From the UHGV virus genome UHGV-0219734: 20,304 bases of DNA; one strand, written 5' to 3'. Source of the DNA: a virus. Under the pieces are notes generated by a model. That model saw only the letters and a program-made list of their open reading frames with translations, did no database searches and had not been told where the DNA came from. Positions within the stretch are counted from its first letter, which is position 1, and every line of letters begins with the position of its first letter. Shown piece by piece: positions 5,640 through 19,427 of the stretch. The position numbers and the translations under genes were made by a program.

Positions 5640-8600
5640 CGTCCACCTCCGGAGAACAGACCACCATCACGGGACTGCTGTTGCATAAAGTCCGCTGCTG
5701 CTTTTTTCCCGAGGTCATAAACCACCTTCAGGGCAGCCGGACCTATCTGCCCGTTCGTGCCATCGTTATTGATCTCGATGTTGTACTGCGGGGCAAACAT
5801 CGCCATACCTGAACCACCAATATCCGCCACAACCCCCAGCTTACCGTCAGCACCACGACGCAGAGGCAGAATGGCTTCAGGCCCAGCTTCCCCCATCACA
5901 CCTGCACCTTTTGCAAAAGCAAAAAACGTCGGACGGTTAACCACCGTGCCACTGTAGCGACTCAAATCAGCAGACTGATAAACACCACCATCAGCATTGG
6001 GCGTCACACTGGCAGTTGCTGCACTCCCCCAGCCAAACGCCGAACCAATCCCCTTAACTGCCTGCATCATGGACATCTGGGCCATGATTTTTGCCAGATC
6101 AGAAAGGAGCGAGGCGGTAAAAGATTTGAAGTTCAGTTTTCCGGTAGTACAGAACGTTGCCAGTGCATTACCTGCACTGTTAAATGCCGCTGTAAGCATC
6201 TGCTCAGCAGTGCCTGCCGCATTATCCGCATCTGCCGTGAAATTCTGAAACGCCCGCATAGCACCGTTTTTCCAGTTACCCTGAGCAATTTCAAGCTGTT
6301 GCCAGTAACGGCGATTCTCATTCAGTTGTCGGTTCAGGCTCTCCGTCAGCGCCTGCTCGGCCTTTCTGTAGTCATCCGTGTTATATGTCCCTTTCTGCTC
6401 ACTATCCCGCCTCAACTGCTCCAGCTGTTGCTGGTATTTCTGGCGAAGACTCAGTTGTACCTGATATCGCTGCCGCTGCTGATCACCCATACCCACCGTG
6501 GCGATATCCAGGTCATGTTGCTGGCGCTGAGCGCGCTCTTCTTCAGCCAGTTGACTGGTCAGCTGAATTGTTTTTTTCTTCAGATCGTTGAGTGCCGTCT
6601 GTTTCTGAAGCTCCTGCTGTTTTACATCCAGCAGCGTCAGTGCCTGAATCAGTTCATCTTTACGGGCCAGCAAACTCTTTTCATCTGCCGTCAGTTTTTT
6701 CCCGTCCAGATCGCTGATGCGCTGCTGCAGAGCCAGAAGCTGTTTATGCGCTTCTGTCATCCTGTCAGTGGCAATGCCTGCTGACTGTCTTGCAGCAGCA
6801 ATCTGCCCTTCCACCTGTGCCTGTTGCTGACTGTACTGCAGCAATAACCGGGTGGCCTCATCATTACGGGTTTCGCGTGTTTTTTTCTTACCGGATGCCA
6901 GGGCTTTCTCGTAACGTTCATTTTCACGTTGTATCGCCGCATCCCTGACAGCCTGATCGGCGTACTGCATGGCATTAATACGCGCAATTTCACGCTGATG
7001 CCGTGCTGCTTCCGTTTCATTCATCCGGTTCAGTGCAGCATTTTCAGCATTACGGCGTTTCTGTTGCTCCTGATAATTCCGCTCTGCCTGCTCTTTTGCA
7101 TCCTGCAAATCCTTCTGGCGTTTTTTCTCCTGAAGATCGTTAAGACGCTGCTGATCGTATTCAACCTGAGAAGATGATGCCGTCCAGGGGAGTCTTTTCG
7201 CCCGCGACACTTTCTCCTGTAAAGCGGCAATCTGTTCATCCAGCGAGTCTTCACGACCAATATTCATGGCCGCATCCCAGAACTGCTTCCACCAGTCAGA
7301 CAAAGTTTGCAGCGTGCTACCCAGCGCATTGAGGTTATTATCAATATCCGCAGTACGACGATCGGTTTCCTCTGCCAGTGCAGACATGGCTATCCGTGCA
7401 GCATCACTGGACCGCCCCTGCTCCCCAAGGACGCGTATCTGCTCAAGCTGAGTGGCAGTAAGAAAATGCAGCTCATTGTCCAGAGCCTTCGCGGCATTTA
7501 CAGGATCATCCTTCAGCCGCTTAAACTGACTTATGGTATCGCTGACCGACTGGCCAACCGATCGCTCCATCTGTGCGGCAGCTCTCGCCACCATACCGAT
7601 ATCGTTTCCACGAAATGCACCACTCCCCACCACCTGAGCCAGCGCACCGGCTGCAGCATGTTGCGTGATACCATTCCCGGAAATAGCACGACTGAGCGTC
7701 CACAGTTGCCCGGCAGTGACTCCGGCATAATGCCCCGTCAGCGACAACTGGCGGTTAAATTCTTCCCCCTCCTTCTGACCGTCATACCAGGCTTTACCCA
7801 GACCATAGACGGCCGCGGCAATACCGCCAATAACCCCGCCCAGCATCATGCCTTTCGGTGACATCAGTGTGTCTATCCATCCGGCACGGTTAGCCAGCGT
7901 TATCCCGGATCCCCTCAGCGCACCTAAATTGCCGCGGGCCAGTTCACCTATCAGAACGCCTATCTCCTGGCGGGCCGCTGCACTTTTCAGACCCAACGAA
8001 TGCGTGGCTTTTCCTGCCTGCTCCATTTTGCGGATATACACTTCTGCAGCACTGCTTACCCCCAGTTGGGCAGCCTTAGCACGAAGCAACTCAGAAGAAG
8101 AAAGATTCTGGCGGGTTGCCTGCTCTTTAAGCTGACGGATAAACGCCACTTTCTGTCGGGTAGACTCTTCCTCAGCCTGTGTAAGAACACGGGTTTTCGC
8201 AGTAACCTCAGAAATCAGCGCCAGATAATCCTGCTGACCAATCCCGCCACTGTTTCTGGCCTGTCGGATCTGCTGCTGAATACGCTGTAATTCCTGCAGC
8301 CCCGCACTGGCCTGGTTCACACTGTCAATCTGACGATAAAACGCAGCAGCCGCTTTATCCTGAGCCTCCGCCAGAGCCATGGCCTGCGCCTGTTCCTCGC
8401 GCATTTTCTGGCTCAGCGCCTCCATGCGCTGGCGGGTTTTCTCCACCTCGCGGGCCATGCGTTCATGAGCCTGTGCGTTCTTCTCCACCGTCTGCGCATG
8501 GACGGATGCGGCTGTTGCAGCCGAAGAAGCCGCCTGCGTTGTCTGCCGGGCGGCCTGAGTCTGACGCTCCATAAAACGCTGCATACGGGCAGAAGACCGT

Positions 8601-10634: not shown

Positions 10635-11209
10635 AACCTCAGTTGTTGTTTCAGTGCATACCCCAGCTGTTTCGGCATTTCCGCAGCAATGATGCGGTCG
10701 CGGGCATCTTCAAATGCCTGTGTCAGCGGTCCGGACAGCGGGATTTTCACTACCTCCACAGGAAGACGATTTTTTCTTGGCCTGCCCTGATGGTCATGCC
10801 CTGTTGCAAAACGCGCTTCAGGAAGACGCCTCAGAACATGCCAGCGGCCATTCGCCAGTTGCTGAACAAATGCCCCCCGGAAAAAGTATTTTCCCACTCT
10901 CAGTCCTTCACCAGCACGCCGCCGTGTTGTGTTCAGTTTGATGGCGGGCAGATTGCCCCGGTTAACGCGGATCCTGGCCGTCATTTTTCCTGACGGACTA
11001 GCTTTAAACACCCGGACACGCTGACGTACCAGTTTCAGGGGGATCCCTTTCACCTGGTTATCTCCCGCAACGGTATTCCCGGCAACCTGCCGGGTGGCAA
11101 CCGAGACCGCTTTCTGTGCCACACGGTTTATCGCCCATGCGCTGGCCTGTGGCACCATACGGGTATCAAGGCTGTTCAGATTGCGGATGGCATTCTCAAG
11201 CCCCTTCAT
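10619..11209 (-). CDS. Z: Tail completion protein, gpZ-like
   Basis: 196-aa basic ORF, ATG preceded by AGAGGTG, sitting between FII-like and U exactly where lambda Z (192 aa) lies. Assignment is mostly by synteny and size; sequence identity not verified. Confidence 0.7.
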   Translation of the reverse strand: MKGLENAIRNLNSLDTRMVPQASAWAINRVAQKAVSVATRQVAGNTVAGDNQVKGIPLKLVRQRVRVFKASPSGKMTARIRVNRGNLPAIKLNTTRRRAGEGLRVGKYFFRGAFVQQLANGRWHVLRRLPEARFATGHDHQGRPRKNRLPVEVVKIPLSGPLTQAFEDARDRIIAAEMPKQLGYALKQQLRLWLTR

Positions 11210-15379: not shown

Positions 15380-15597
15380 CAGAACCTCGCCAGCCGGTAC
15401 CCGGGATGCCCCCGTCGTCGTGTAATCAGAGCCGCAAGGCGGCGCTCCCACTCCTGCCGTCCCTGCCGGATCTCAGATAAGTTTTCCATGGTCATCTGCT
15501 GACCATTAAAGGTGACGGATTTTCCGTCCAGCACCGCCATTTCAGCTTCCGTATAACGCTGAATCATGGCTTCGATATCATTCTGGTTCATAACCAT
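15379..15597 (-). CDS. W: Head-tail joining protein gpW-like
   Basis: About 70-aa ORF between terminase large subunit and portal. C-terminus ...ITRRRGHPGYRLARF resembles lambda gpW ...QRRRGPAGFYV as recalled. An alternative start at the third codon (ATG 15589-15591) overlaps the terminase stop (ATGA). Confidence 0.7.
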   Translation of the reverse strand: MVMNQNDIEAMIQRYTEAEMAVLDGKSVTFNGQQMTMENLSEIRQGRQEWERRLAALITRRRGHPGYRLARF

Positions 15598-17690
15598 CCT
15601 CCGGAAGTCAGCCAGGGGTTAACATCGTCAGTTACTGTTTTCTTCCGTTTTTGTTTTTTAACAGGCGTGGATACCGGTTCCGGTGAGGGTGACGGTTCGG
15701 TACTGTCCGGGACACACTCCAGCCAGGTTTCCCGGCTCGCCCACTCCGGTGTATCCGGCCAGCGGATCTTTTCGTATCCATGCAGAATGACCAGAGCCTC
15801 GGCATACACCATCAGGTCAAAAGCTTCGTTGGCACCGCGACCCGGCTTACTCCATTTCCCGTCACTGCTCCGCTCTTCATACGTCAGTTCGTCGTAAAAC
15901 CAGCTCCCCAGCCAGTCAGGGAAATGCACATAGCCGGGACCTGGAGAGTCACGCCATAACGCGTTATTCACCCGGTCTTTCAGGGCATCCGTCTGAAGAA
16001 GCCAGAGCGGCACATCACCTGCGGCCTGCGCCCGTCGGCCCGTTCGTCCGGTGTTATCAGGGAATGTACGGGTGATCAGTTTTGCGCGCCGGATGCTGTC
16101 GCCCTTAAACAGGTAAATACGTTTACCAAGGCCATCACGACGGCAACGACGCCAGAATTTATAGGCATTATCAGTGACCCCGTCTTCACCGCCGGAGTCC
16201 ACCGCCATTGCCATCAGTCGCATTTGTTGAGAAGGATCGGAGGCCAGCGGCCAGCTTTTATGAAAAACATCCGTCAGCAGGACATCCCAGTCTTCCGGAT
16301 AGCTGGCCGGATCAATTCGCTGGCTCTCCCCGTCGCTGTCACCGCGCAATGACTGCGTGATGTTGTAACGATCAATAATCCAGCGTTCGCCACGGCTGCC
16401 ATAGCCCGTTACCTGAACCACAAAACGGCGATGACGTCCCGCCTGCACATCCACTGTCGCCACAAGGAAATTAACGCCATCCGGCACACTGCGGGAAGGA
16501 ACTGGCTCTGCCCGCTGCTCAAGCAGTTCACTTTTTCGTTGCTCCATGCTGGCACGGGGAAGATAAGGTAATCCCCAGTCGGTATTGATAACCGTCTTGA
16601 GTGTTTCTTCACTTCCGGTTGTCTCGTATTCCTGTTCTGCAGTAAGCAGTTTGTAAACGAGTTGCGAGAGTGTCTGGTAAGCAGCTGCCGGACCCTCCAT
16701 CCAGAATGACGCAATACGTGAGCGTCGGGGATCACCATAACGACTGCCATCCGCATTGATGGATTCACCATCCCGCAACCAGACCCCACGTCCGTTCAGC
16801 TCACGTTTTTGTTCAGGCATAATCCGTCCTGAACAGGAAGGACACTGAATATAAGCCGCCTCACTTGCCAGCACGGGATCGGCAATATCACGGAAACCAG
16901 CAACCACATCGCCGCAGGGCTGAAAATACTCACCACAGTGTGGACAGGGCCAGTACCAGCGACGGCGATCACCACGGTTATAGAGCGACAGTATCCCCGT
17001 GGTTGGTGGAGCCTCATGCGGTGAAGTCCGTCGCCATTTCACATCCTTCACATCCCTGCCGGGGGAACTCTCCACCAGCGTCATACCACTGGACATAAAT
17101 GTGGTGGTACGTTTTGAGGCAAGAGAGAAAGCATCCCCCTCGCCATCAATATCTTCCGGAAAACGGTCATAATCCGTCAGCGCGACGCATTTATAATCTG
17201 ATGAGGACATGATATTGACTGACGGCCAGCCGATTTTCAGGTAGTTACCAGCAAGGAATGTTCTGTCATAAACGTTGTTGTCATTTTTGTTCGGACTCAG
17301 GCGACTGACCACTTCCGGGCTGACGCGAAACGTTCTGGCGAGTCGTTTTTTGGAGTGTTCGCGGGCTTTTTCCTCCGTCATCTGAATGATCAGCATATCA
17401 GCAGGATCGCAAATCACGTTGTAAATCACCCAGCCGTCAATCAGGCCGATAGTCTTGCCGGTTCGTGCCGGGCCAACAAATATCACTGCGTCGTATTCAC
17501 GCGAGGCCAGGCAGTTCATCGGCTCAATAACATACGGTGCCACCAGCGGATCCCACGGGACTGAGTTCCCTGCCCCCATGGGCACCCGCATATACTGAGC
17601 AACGGCATCAGCAACCCGCATTCGCCTCGGTGCGCGAAGGATATAACCTGAATCGGTTCGTGCTGCCTTTGCGGTTTCCTGATTCAGCAT
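15588..17690 (-). CDS. Terminase large subunit (GpA family)
   Basis: 700 aa. Walker A-like GPARTGKT; Cys/His cluster WYWPCPHCGEYFQ paralleling lambda gpA ACPHCGEEQY as recalled. ATG overlaps the small-subunit stop (TAATG). Confidence 0.9.
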   Translation of the reverse strand: MLNQETAKAARTDSGYILRAPRRMRVADAVAQYMRVPMGAGNSVPWDPLVAPYVIEPMNCLASREYDAVIFVGPARTGKTIGLIDGWVIYNVICDPADMLIIQMTEEKAREHSKKRLARTFRVSPEVVSRLSPNKNDNNVYDRTFLAGNYLKIGWPSVNIMSSSDYKCVALTDYDRFPEDIDGEGDAFSLASKRTTTFMSSGMTLVESSPGRDVKDVKWRRTSPHEAPPTTGILSLYNRGDRRRWYWPCPHCGEYFQPCGDVVAGFRDIADPVLASEAAYIQCPSCSGRIMPEQKRELNGRGVWLRDGESINADGSRYGDPRRSRIASFWMEGPAAAYQTLSQLVYKLLTAEQEYETTGSEETLKTVINTDWGLPYLPRASMEQRKSELLEQRAEPVPSRSVPDGVNFLVATVDVQAGRHRRFVVQVTGYGSRGERWIIDRYNITQSLRGDSDGESQRIDPASYPEDWDVLLTDVFHKSWPLASDPSQQMRLMAMAVDSGGEDGVTDNAYKFWRRCRRDGLGKRIYLFKGDSIRRAKLITRTFPDNTGRTGRRAQAAGDVPLWLLQTDALKDRVNNALWRDSPGPGYVHFPDWLGSWFYDELTYEERSSDGKWSKPGRGANEAFDLMVYAEALVILHGYEKIRWPDTPEWASRETWLECVPDSTEPSPSPEPVSTPVKKQKRKKTVTDDVNPWLTSGGWL

Positions 17691-18184
17691 TACTCCTCCT
17701 GCTGTAATTCCTCCTCATCATCCGCACCTGCTTCGGTCACCCGCAGGGCTATCTGATCGCGCAGATCATCAATAATGGACTGAACACGGCTCACAGCGGC
17801 AGGCTGCAGACCGCAGTCACGTTCCAGAATATCCGGTAATGTCTCCAGCACCTGCACGACCGCTTTTGCCCAGATGGCAAACTCCCGTCTGACATCACTG
17901 GCCGGAATGAGTTGCGCCGTTTCCTGTTCGAACTTAAGACGCTCACGTTCAGACTGATACCAGGCTTTGCGCTCATGCGCGTCCATTTCGCCTTCTGCAA
18001 CCGGCGGTGGTAATGCCAGAAATGCCGACACAATATCAACCACCCGATAAAGCTTGAGGTTGCTTTCATGCCCCCCTGCAACGGGTAGATTTTGCAGCCT
18101 TGCCGCAGCAGTCTGGCGATGTACACCTGACAGTGCCGCCAGTTGACTGATATTCAGCGTCAGATTTTTTAACTCTCGATCCAT
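17690..18184 (-). CDS. Terminase small subunit (Nu1-like DNA-packaging protein)
   Basis: 164 aa. N-terminal helix-turn-helix-like segment LNISQLAALSGVHRQTAAARL, acidic C-terminus (DDEEELQQEE). Immediately upstream of and overlapping the large terminase; first gene downstream of the cos site. Confidence 0.75.
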   Translation of the reverse strand: MDRELKNLTLNISQLAALSGVHRQTAAARLQNLPVAGGHESNLKLYRVVDIVSAFLALPPPVAEGEMDAHERKAWYQSERERLKFEQETAQLIPASDVRREFAIWAKAVVQVLETLPDILERDCGLQPAAVSRVQSIIDDLRDQIALRVTEAGADDEEELQQEE

Positions 18185-18376
18185 ACCCGCTCCAGAATGT
18201 TTTAAACATGCATCTTGCGAACAACTTTAGGCAAACGGTGTTAGTGATGAACAAAAAACAATCAAAATCGACACCATAAAAATAAAACTAATGTAATATC
18301 AATGCATTACAGTAGTGGTGATGACGAATGAAATTTCAAAAACTAGCCTTTTCCCGCGACGCTCCCGCCCCGTGGC
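18185..18376 (-). other. cos site: cosN (about 18353-18376) plus cosB (18185-18352)
   Basis: Minus strand reads CCACG-GGGCGGGAGCGT-CGCGGG-AAAAGG..., against lambda ACG-GGGCGGCGACCT-CGCGGG-TTTTCG as recalled. Further in, ATTCGTCATCAC echoes lambda CTTCGTCATAAC. AT-rich stretch with repeated TCATCAC motif before the small terminase start. Predicted 12-nt cohesive end is minus-strand GGGCGGGAGCGT (plus 18359-18370). Confidence 0.6.
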
Positions 18377-18763
18377 AGGCCACCCCACCGGGAGGACCCG
18401 TCAGCCTGACAGCCATGACGAACGTCTGATACAGCGCCCTGCATGAATGGCATCGGGATAATCCAGAAAGGAATAGCATCGTGCCCACAAGAATCTGTGT
18501 GAGTGTCCTGTTTCTTCCACCCCCGCACAGGACTGGCGAGCATGAGGGACAAACCCGCGAACCATAAACGCGGTAAAAACCCGGTGTGCATCGTTTTTGA
18601 TTATTCCCGCACACTCGCGCAGAAGGAGTTCCCCGTCGGGCTACGGTCTCTGTTAATACGGGAATACGGCGACGATACAGCGCATGATGTGTCAGGCTTG
18701 AATACCTTTATCCGTTAAAAGGGATATCAGTTAAGTTATCCCGTGTAGGGTATAAGCCATTAC

Positions 18764-18785
18764 AAAAGCCCCGCGAATGCGAGGC
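18764..18785 (-). terminator. Terminator-like hairpin downstream of the lysis cassette
   Basis: Minus-strand RNA 5'-GCCUCGC-AUUC-GCGGGGC-3' (7-bp stem including one G-U) followed by UUUUG. Flanked by a 9-bp inverted repeat cattacaaa / tttgtaatg (about 18758-18766 and 18798-18806). Confidence 0.4.
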
Positions 18786-18959
18786 TAAATCCTGGTATTT
18801 GTAATGACTGGCTCTTATCCCAACGCAGCCCCTTACCGCGCGCAAGATGCTCAATATCAAGCATCAGCAATGAGATATTTAATCTGGATTCACTCCAGAA
18901 GTGATCACCACCCTGTCTACAGAGCCAGATGTGAAGGATGATGAGTAAAATTATCGCTA

Positions 18960-19427
18960 TCATCGAAGGCATTGCGTCCTGATGTATTCCTGAAGCGTTC
19001 TCAGTGCTGTTTGGTCGCTGATGATTCCGTCCCGGATACCGAGAACGTTTCGTCCAGCAACTGGAGAGAGTTCGACGGTGGCATCATTGCCCATGCCGGA
19101 GGCGCTGGAGGCTTCGGCTGAGGTTGGCACAGGGCATTTTCCTTTGACGAACACCCGACCACCATTATCAAGCTTGCGCCGAAGAGCATCATTTTCAGCT
19201 TTCGCATCAGCTAACTCCTTCGTGTATTTAGCATCGAGTGCATCAGCAGCACGCTGGCGCTGCTGCATGTCAGTAATGGTGGCGTTCGCCTTCTCCAGTT
19301 CTCTGGCATTTTTGTCGCGCTGGGCTTTGTAGGTAATGGCGTTATCACGGTAATGATTGACCGCCCACGACAGGCAGACGATGATGCAGATAACCAGAGC
19401 ATAAATAATCGCGGCGACTCTGCTCAC
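18960..19427 (-). CDS. Rz: i-spanin Rz
   Basis: Translation ...[54 protein letters not shown]...[19 protein letters not shown]... closely resembles lambda Rz as recalled (N-terminal TM then coiled coil). Probable GTG start at 19425-19427 overlapping the endolysin stop; the track's TTG at 19442 is an alternative. Confidence 0.85.
19001..19207 (-). CDS. Rz1: o-spanin Rz1, embedded out of frame within Rz
   Basis: 68-aa ORF entirely inside Rz in the +1 frame. [18 protein letters not shown]|CSSK has a lipobox, followed by a Pro-rich stretch [12 protein letters not shown]. Resembles lambda Rz1 (MLKLKMML...VVVGC...PPPPPAW) as recalled. Confidence 0.8.

Follow-up and report, generated by a model that had tools for sequence, protein, structure and literature searches.

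In phage lambda, the cos site combines cosQ, the packaging-termination signal, with the nicking site cosN and with cosB, whose R core GTCGTTTCC is recognized by the small terminase Nu1. The complex cosB of lambda is ordered R3-I1-R2-R1; its three R sequences are related to one another, R2 being inverted, and an IHF site separates R3 from R2. When the right end of the lambda genome is joined to its left end (both ends of NC_001416, our lambda reference), the junction reads ACGGGTCCTTTCCGGTGATCCGACAGGTTACG/GGGCGGCGACCT/CGCGGGTTTTCGCTATTTATGAAAATTTTCC, with slashes marking the cuts. The I2 element of lambda covers bp 18 to 50 (PMC4856287), and lambda terminase cuts 47 ± 2 bp from an R site (cited in PMC9026076). 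As the Feiss laboratory describes them, lambda-like cosN sites vary naturally at bp 7 to 12, while conservation extends to cosQ, the CG flanks, and the overhang's left half (PMC4669245). Large terminase subunits of the gpA family are associated with 5' cos ends (PMC12315714).

Among the relatives of the locus studied here, Cr-LKS3, a cyanophage of Cylindrospermopsis, is the only one with experimentally determined ends, which are 5' cohesive with a 9-nt overhang, GGGCTCGCG. The ends of phage LLS were inferred by its authors and are shared with the putative cos of mEp213, and the paper describing Ayreon expected a cos that it did not locate. We found no physical end mapping in the literature for the mEp460/cdtI/LLS lineage. 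Here, we describe a probable cos site of this lineage in a 20,304-nt stretch of DNA (the window). Positions are those of the window, and base pairs (bp) are counted on the minus strand from the predicted left end of the virion DNA.

RESULTS

Location of the site in an E. coli prophage

The window represents an E. coli prophage and was 99.98% identical to NZ_AP029000.1 across its full length. On the minus strand, the endolysin gene (19957 to 19424) and Rz (19442 to 18960) are followed by a gap of ~775 nt and by ORFs of 164 and 700 amino acids, downstream of which lie a head-tail adaptor gene, a portal gene of the lambda B type, and a ClpP-capsid fusion. The gap carries, on the minus strand, GACGGGTCCTCCCGGTGGGGTGGCCTGCCACG GGGCGGGAGCGT CGCGGGAAAAGGCTAGTTTTTGAAATTTCATTCGTCATCACCAC, and the features that we assigned to it and to the adjoining genes are collected in Table 1. 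Rfam, terminator, and promoter scans of positions 18100 to 19000 returned nothing above chance. An 82-aa ORF spanning the site (18343 to 18591) straddles a mosaic boundary and matches only PHROG families of unknown function (phrog_17397 at 1.9e-46); it is probably not a gene.

TABLE 1 Features of the cos region and the terminase genes in the window
Feature	Positions	Strand	Sequence or extent	Basis
cosQ	18393..18399	-	GGGTCCT, bp -29 to -23	Identical to the lambda 7-mer, in the homologous place
cosQ-cosN spacer	18371..18392	-	22 nt, terminal CCACG	Last 5 nt strongly conserved
cosN, nicking site	18354..18375	-	22 bp, CCACG/GGGCGGGAGCGT/CGCGG	Symmetry and conserved CG flanks
Predicted 12-nt 5' cohesive end	18359..18370	-	GGGCGGGAGCGT	Start of the cdtI record, LLS annotation, match to lambda
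I2-like block	18331..18358	-	CGCGGGAAAAGGCTAGTTTTTGAAATTT, bp 13 to 40, phased A/T tracts	Position of lambda I2
R3-position cosB element	18311..18330	-	CATTCGTCATCACCACTACT, bp 41 to 60, core CGTCATCACCAC	Lambda R3 position; lineage covariation
IHF consensus	18297..18309	+	TATCAATGCATTA (WATCAANNNNTTR), bp 62 to 74	Candidate I1 bend site
Conserved block	18265..18275	-	GGTGTCGATTT, bp 96 to 106	Possibly a degenerate R element copy, inverted
Distal direct R copy	18238..18255	-	TTTGTTCATCACTAACAC, bp 116 to 133, shared core TCATCAC	Coordinate match with the LLS type
Leader from cosB to terS	18185..18237	-		Ribosome-binding site GGAG, 8 nt ahead of the ATG
terS	17690..18184	-	164 aa, Pfam DUF1441	PF07278, E = 2.7e-41; ATG at 18184
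terL	15588..17690	-	700 aa, gpA family, ATPase and endonuclease domains	Pfam, BLASTP

cosQ and cosN compared with phage lambda

An earlier note on this DNA, made from its letters alone, had read the minus-strand segments CCACG (18375 to 18371) and CGCGGG (18358 to 18353), together with the 12-mer between them, as a parallel to lambda cosN. Alignment with the NC_001416 junction bore this out. The cosQ heptamer GGGTCCT and the nick contexts ACG/GGGCGG and T/CGCGGG are identical in lambda and in the window, and the overhangs agree at 8 of 12 positions, including all six of bp 1 to 6, with mismatches at bp 7, 8, 9, and 11. Rotational symmetry holds at 12 of the 22 positions of cosN, compared with 10 of 22 in lambda. 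In the window, as in cdtI, LLS, and the Hafnia phage yong2, a spacer of 22 nt separates cosQ from cosN; the lambda spacer has 23 nt. The site has a cohesive end related to GGGCGGCGACCT, CG flanks, cosQ upstream across the 22-nt spacer, and an A/T-rich I2-like segment (at bp 17 to 40, the window reads GGAAAAGGCTAGTTTTTGAAATTT, nearly invariant in relatives). Matches in cosQ and cosN of this kind are what the Feiss laboratory uses to define lambda-like cos sites, and the window fits its description of their natural variation (PMC4669245). The pattern GGGTCCT-N20-CGGGGCGG-N6-CGCGG, with up to 2 mismatches allowed, was present at a single place in the window, and 100 dinucleotide shuffles did not contain it.

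This anatomy predicts nicks between 18371 and 18370 on the minus strand and between 18359 and 18358 on the plus strand, and the virion DNA would very probably carry 5' extensions of 12 nt each, GGGCGGGAGCGT and ACGCTCCCGCCC. The cosN junction lies 186 nt upstream of the small-terminase gene, terS starting at bp 187. The interval that had been proposed for the site, 18185 to 18376, locates the 12-mer exactly but leaves out cosQ (18393 to 18399), which is part of the feature.

The 8-mer TTCGTCAT (18328 to 18321) had also been taken for a lambda-like element of cosB. It lies at bp 43 in the window but occupies bp 67 to 74 in lambda, where it falls outside the R sequences, and 64% of shuffled sequences have one or more 8-mers in common with lambda cosB. 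We therefore regard its likeness to lambda as a coincidence, so that it does not stand as a lambda-homologous element; it does, however, fall inside the lineage's own cosB element at the R3 position. The Nu1-recognized R core of lambda had no match in 18185 to 18352 with one mismatch allowed.

Small and large terminase subunits

The packaging module was judged intact in the earlier note, and our comparisons agree: TerS is 100% identical to the TerS of Ayreon and phi458, and TerL is identical at 697 of 700 residues (99.6%) to the TerL of the plaque-forming phage mEp460. TerL contains GpA_ATPase (PF05876, 8.5e-72) and GpA_nuclease (PF20454, 1.1e-85), each as a full domain, and is 25% identical to lambda gpA (BLASTP E = 4e-19).

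The small subunit, described earlier as Nu1-like, belongs to Pfam DUF1441 and not to the Phage_Nu1 family, and it appears to be only a remote homologue of Nu1. It hit PHROG 141 ("terminase small subunit") with an E value of 7e-74 and, more weakly, PHROG 57 (8e-10); conversely, lambda Nu1 matched PHROG 57 best (1.3e-76) and PHROG 141 at 6e-8, and both of these weak cross-matches cover most of the protein length. An hhalign comparison of TerS with the single lambda Nu1 sequence was insignificant (probability of 3%). In an AlphaFold model of TerS (pLDDT of 78, pTM of 0.36), the N terminus is arranged as strand-helix-helix-strand (wing)-helix and is followed by long helices. The top PDB match of the model found with Foldseek, a weak one (E = 0.045), was the Nu1-type TerS chain 6HN7_B, which itself matches residues 1 to 98 of lambda Nu1 at 1e-59; MerR-type winged helix-turn-helix proteins came next.

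Deposited phage records and the predicted ends

The record of phage cdtI (AB285204) ends with GGTGGGGTGGCCTGCCACG (...CCACG) and begins with GGGCGGGAGCGTCGCGG, its bases 1 to 12 being GGGCGGGAGCGT; it is thus opened exactly at the predicted left end, and the cutting module is in effect already on record as the start of the cdtI genome. From GGTGGGGTGGCCTGCCACG through GGCTAGTTTTT, a single base separates cdtI (CGCGGA) from the window (CGCGGG), and the terL and head and tail genes of cdtI are ~95% identical to those of the window. In contrast, cdtI has its own cosB-terS cassette, with CATGGCGGCGGCAACATG as the R3-position element and a TerS that is 38% identical to that of the window by protein alignment (41.7% by tblastn); homology returns ~100 nt into terL. 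Since cdtI shares cosQ-cosN-I2 and terL from nt ~100 but neither cosB nor terS, the cosB-terS-5'terL cassette appears to have been exchanged. cdtI is a lambdoid phage that carries cytolethal distending toxin genes.

In the LLS record, bases 1 to 12, GGGCGGCGCGCT, are annotated as a misc_feature, "5' extended single-strand cohesive site." LLS and mEp213 share the TerS family of the window (57 to 58% identity) and agree with it in cosQ, in the length of the spacer (22 nt), in the nick contexts, and in the I2-like block, and they have an R3-position element and a distal copy at the coordinates seen in the window. They differ in the overhang's right half, in the R element (GTCATCATCATCAT), and in terS, which begins at bp 130, in overlap with the distal copy. 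The yong2 record opens at bp 13, the base that follows its own 12-mer. In Cr-LKS3, the overhang is preceded by ...GGGTCCC...GACGCG and followed by CGCGGAAGTCGGCAGTTTTT. This phage resembles the window in its DUF1441-type terS near the left end, the cosQ-like GGGTCCC, the CG/GGGC.../CGCGG contexts, and the block GGCAGTTTTT but differs in its cyanobacterial host, in a TerS only ~40% identical to that of the window, and in its overhang, the interval between the nick contexts being 3 bp shorter. Together, the cdtI, LLS, and yong2 records and the nick context of Cr-LKS3 support the 12-nt 5' end that had been predicted at 18359 to 18370.

The nearest sequenced phages, mEp460, Ayreon, phi458, and mEp460_4F5, are 96 to 98% identical to the window in the cos region and 99 to 100% identical in TerS. 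The records of mEp460, mEp460_ev081, and Ayreon break at window position 18210/18209, which we rejected as a terminus because it is the annotated start codon of terS. The published records of mEp460 and Ayreon were opened arbitrarily because their cos had not been located. The mEp460_4F5 record opens 5 nt before the predicted nick and has an altered cosN, GGGCGGGAGCG-CGGAAAAAGG, which may be an end artifact. The IMG/VR contigs with the site do not end at the 12-mer, which is uninformative because almost all of these contigs are prophages taken out of isolate genomes and have the site in their interior. We considered whether the locus L086, which has three cos cores, is a PICI-like satellite and rejected this, as L086 consists of prophage remnants in a row, each carrying a cosB of its own type.

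Conservation of the site upstream of DUF1441 terS genes

When an alignment of TerS was used to scan a single genome of each species, it returned 67 loci from many genera, enterobacterial and other, and in nearly all of these the cos core lay upstream of terS at a fixed distance. We anchored 60 distinct sites, which precede DUF1441 terS genes in many genera, at the predicted nick. Their information content peaked at cosQ, CCACG/GGG, CGCGG (bp 13 to 17), and AAACGGCTAGTTTTT, whereas the right half of the overhang (bp 7 to 12) was variable, the pattern described for lambda-like cosN (PMC4669245). CG occupied positions -2 and -1 in 48 of the 60 sites, and CGCGG was present at bp 13 to 17 in all but one (59/60). 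AAACGGCTAGTTTTT was nearly invariant and is also found in Cr-LKS3. At the position of cosQ, 35 of the 60 relatives had GGGTCCT and ~20 others had AGGTACT. The conserved CG nick contexts were exactly 12 nt apart in the window and in the nick-anchored enterobacterial relatives, and both the 12-mer and the cosQ allele assorted independently of the TerS type. The proposal of a lambda-type cos thus holds for cosQ, cosN, and the I2-like tract, which are positionally homologous to their lambda counterparts and conserved in the 60 distinct relatives.

Putative cosB elements and IHF site

The element at the R3 position begins 43 to 44 bp from the nick and is a candidate for the primary TerS-binding site. 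Its sequence differs by lineage and covaries with the helix-turn-helix of TerS: CRTCATCACCAC accompanies NIS/NVSQ...HRQT (the window type), GTCATCATCATCAT accompanies NINQ...HRQT, CATGGCGGCGGCARCATG accompanies FKIAEAFG.HRDTVKKRL (the cdtI type), and CCGTGCAGCAGCACTGG accompanies VNVTQL...NRNMVARRL. This covariation could partly reflect coinheritance of adjacent DNA. Since adjacency feeds coinheritance, we argue for selection on cosB from the pattern of footprints. In 40 distinct loci of the LLS type of TerS, the largest type, with a median pairwise identity of 74%, discrete conserved footprints were separated by freely varying spacers: CATCATCATCAT at bp 46 to 57, a TTGAT core at bp ~70, GATGTCGAA at bp 98 to 106, and TGTTCACCATCATGGA at bp 119 to 133. 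Within the R3-position element of this type, the core was at least 90% conserved and the flanks varied.

In the window, direct copies of the element lie at bp 44 to 57 and bp 118 to 131, with CGTCATCACCAC (bp 44 to 56) and TGTTCATCAC (bp 118 to 127) as the putative cosB elements. The distal copy at bp 118 to 131 reads TGTTCATCACTAAC in the window type and GTGTTCAYCATCAT in the LLS type, despite terS starting at bp 187 in the former and at bp 130 in the latter; the leader segment 18185 to 18237 is missing from LLS-type sites. Between both R copies falls the sole perfect IHF consensus of the 20.3-kb window (0.63 expected). Its [TC]TG[AT][TA] core occurs at bp 60 to 83 in 97% of the relatives, and the strict consensus occurs at bp 55 to 85 in 25%. 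In the block at bp 96 to 106, GATGTCGAA was at least 90% conserved at bp 98 to 106 across the 40 LLS-type loci. We considered this block as an inverted third R copy, comparable to lambda R2, but the similarity was too weak to claim, with a mean of 4.9 mismatches out of 12 to the other R copies compared with 5.6 in shuffles, which is barely above chance. The window type of cosB is undescribed in the literature that we found, and it extends the lambda model without departing from it.

DISCUSSION

We propose, with a probability of about 85%, that the site is the cos of an mEp460/cdtI-like lambdoid E. coli prophage and that it works like the cos of lambda. Packaging would be initiated by the DUF1441 TerS, whose N terminus is a predicted winged helix-turn-helix and would bind CGTCATCACCAC and TGTTCATCAC, while IHF may bend the DNA at the perfect consensus (bp 62 to 74) between both cosB elements. 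TerS binding and the bend would then place the gpA-type TerL on cosN, where nicking of the minus strand at 18371/18370 and of the plus strand at 18359/18358 would leave the 12-nt 5' cohesive end GGGCGGGAGCGT. Packaging would run toward terS and the head genes, with 18370 as the left end of the virion DNA. At the next cos of the concatemer, cosQ, cosN, and the I2-like tract would direct the terminating cut.

Other readings of the locus have to be weighed against this one. That the resemblance to lambda arose by chance in GC-rich intergenic DNA, and that the phage packages in another way, for example by headful from a pac site, we consider almost certainly wrong. The parallel of TTCGTCAT with lambda is indeed due to chance, but the cosQ-cosN pattern did not arise in any shuffled sequence, 60 distinct loci from different genera have the site conserved upstream of terS at a fixed distance, and TerL is of the family associated with 5' cos ends (PMC12315714). 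A genuine cos whose stagger is other than 12 nt, either through a shorter overhang or through nicks shifted by 1 to 2 bases, is improbable. The mapped 9-nt overhang of Cr-LKS3, a distant phage with a DUF1441 terS, lies in the same context and would speak for such a stagger, as would the mEp460_4F5 record if its opening 5 nt ahead of the predicted nick, next to an altered cosN, is not an artifact. However, the shorter overhang of Cr-LKS3 corresponds to its 3-bp-shorter interval with the nicks unshifted, whereas the window and the nick-anchored enterobacterial relatives have exactly 12 nt between the conserved CG contexts. Moreover, the points at which the cdtI and yong2 records begin bracket a 12-mer, which argues against a shifted or shorter cut.

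A further reading accepts the lambda-type cos as intact but holds it to be idle, the prophage being defective or noninducible or the site being cut only with the terminase of a related helper phage; we consider this unlikely, though by no means negligible. Only late genes are visible in the window. In the 99.98% identical RefSeq genome, RefSeq flags terL as frameshifted, since an A-run is one A short, and marks as partial both an Rz fragment and a tail-fiber gene; rows of decayed prophages with the same cos type exist, such as L086. Against idleness, the terL frame is intact in the window, where terS, terL, the portal gene, and the protease-capsid fusion are all full length, and the near-identical genome carries, in lambdoid order, the repressor gene, cro, the replication genes, Q, and the genes for lysis, head, and tail. 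The TerS and TerL identities of 100% and 99.6% to proteins of plaque-forming phages point the same way, as does the ~97% identity of the window to the isolated phages PhiR55_1, phi458, mEp460, and Ayreon over 82 to 93% of its length.

The site is of value for annotation, since it predicts where the genomes of a very common family of E. coli phages and prophages truly end: of 5,426 complete E. coli genomes, 4,031 matched part of an 801-nt region around cos, and 1,191 contained at least 80% of it. It also makes the activity of the prophage checkable, since read pile-ups would have a defined target at 18370/18359. The comparative set suggests a natural system for the study of how small terminases read cosB. 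Tentatively, and at somewhat less than even odds, we suggest that phages with a DUF1441 TerS form a large, uncharacterized set of packaging specificities, in which a shared cosQ-cosN-I2 is combined with swappable cosB-terS-5'terL cassettes. The recognition elements of this set may be short and triplet-repeat-like, (TCA)n, TCA-CCA, GGC-GGC, or GCA-GCA, and may covary with the recognition helix of TerS; AAGGTACTCC would be a second natural cosQ allele, and the window, with CGTCATCACCAC, would represent one such specificity.

The site itself is of an ordinary, known kind that follows the lambda model and settles no open question. As in lambda, a partially two-fold symmetric cosN is followed by an I2-like block of A/T tracts, a candidate specificity element at a distance of ~44 bp from the nick, an IHF consensus, and another repeat, with terS and a gpA-type terL directly downstream. 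Unlike in lambda, where the spacer between cosQ and cosN is 1 nt longer, the cosB repeats are TCA/CCA-triplet-like (CGTCATCACCAC) rather than copies of the GTCGTTTCC R core, the distal R copy is direct, the inverted middle copy is a weak candidate, and the terminase pairs a DUF1441 TerS, remotely related to Nu1, with a TerL that shares a quarter of its residues with gpA. N15, with its simple cosB, and the cos sites of PICIs likewise join a lambda-like cosQ and cosN to a divergent recognition region (PMC4669245, PMC9026076). N15 differs from the window in having a single R3 and a remote site within its terS gene (gene 1), and PICIs differ in pairing cos with an rpp gene and no terminase (PMC4669245, PMC9026076), whereas the window has the full terS-terL-head module.

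Variation around cosQ and cosN

At about one-third of the DUF1441-terS cos sites, cosQ (GGGTCCTCC) is replaced by AAGGTACTCC (loci L017, L018, L020, L022, L023, L026, L030, L031, L035, L039, L040, L044, L050, L059, L060, L062-L064, L067, and L074 of the comparison set). Whether a locus carries AAGGTACTCC or GGGTCCTCC is independent of which TerS it encodes and of which 12-mer it has as its predicted cohesive end, and AAGGTACTCC looks like a second natural allele of cosQ. Classic lambda-like phages show no apparent natural variation in cosQ, according to the papers of Feiss (PMC4669245).

The window also carries a second TTCGTCAT upstream of cosQ, at bp -52 to -45 relative to the left end of the 12-mer. 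This copy is not conserved in the related phage mEp460_4F5, which has CTCGTCAG at that place. Only 5 nt precede the predicted nick in the mEp460_4F5 record (L003:1-30), where cosN is GGGCGGGAGCG-CGGAAAAAGG, 3 nt shorter than that of the window. The short cosN may reflect an assembly artefact at a physical end of the DNA or a real variant.

Features around cos in the window and in contig L086
Feature	Position	Strand	Remarks
AAGGTACTCC, alternative to cosQ	~30-40 nt upstream of 12-mer		Loci of the DUF1441-terS comparison set
Second TTCGTCAT	window 18415-18422	-	
82-aa ORF	window 18343-18591	-	phrog_17397; annotated as mEp460_059
Conserved block, ~196 nt	window 18505-18700		Between Rz and cos
L086 cos cores	59-138; 8194-8273; 10730-10809		Same orientation
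L086 core, window type			Accompanied by terS and truncated terL
L086 core, cdtI type			Without intact terS
L086 core, third type (TTCGTCATCATCATC)			Accompanied by 180-aa terS

Sequences overlapping and flanking cos

The 82-aa ORF spans both cosQ and cosN and would thus be severed in virion DNA. Since homology of phage phi458 to the window starts only at 18403, within this ORF, its two halves come from different mosaic modules. The ORF is probably an annotation artefact. The block between Rz and cos shows 85 to 96% identity in >200 lambdoid and Stx-converting phages, where it mostly lacks annotation, and it had no match in Pfam, PHROG, or Rfam.

NZ_AP029000.1 carries a prophage with 99.98% identity to the window, and RefSeq marks its terL gene as frameshifted. 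The sole difference from the window in that part of the gene is an AAAA run that lacks one A (window 16259 region, terL nucleotide 1432). Either a sequencing error in the homopolymer or a genuine mutation that inactivates terL could account for this difference.

Apparent exchange of cosB and terminase sequences

The IMG/VR contig L086 (11,983 nt) contains three cos cores, each with a different cosB type, and seems to consist of several prophage remnants lying one after another. Phage cdtI (L007/L008) has cosQ-cosN-I2 in common with the window, with an identical 12-mer and spacer, and the two terL genes are ~95% identical from about nucleotide 100 onward. Their cosB elements are different, and their TerS proteins share only 38 to 42% identity. 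From these sequence comparisons, a specificity cassette comprising cosB, terS, and the 5' part of terL (window 17591-18352) appears to have been swapped.
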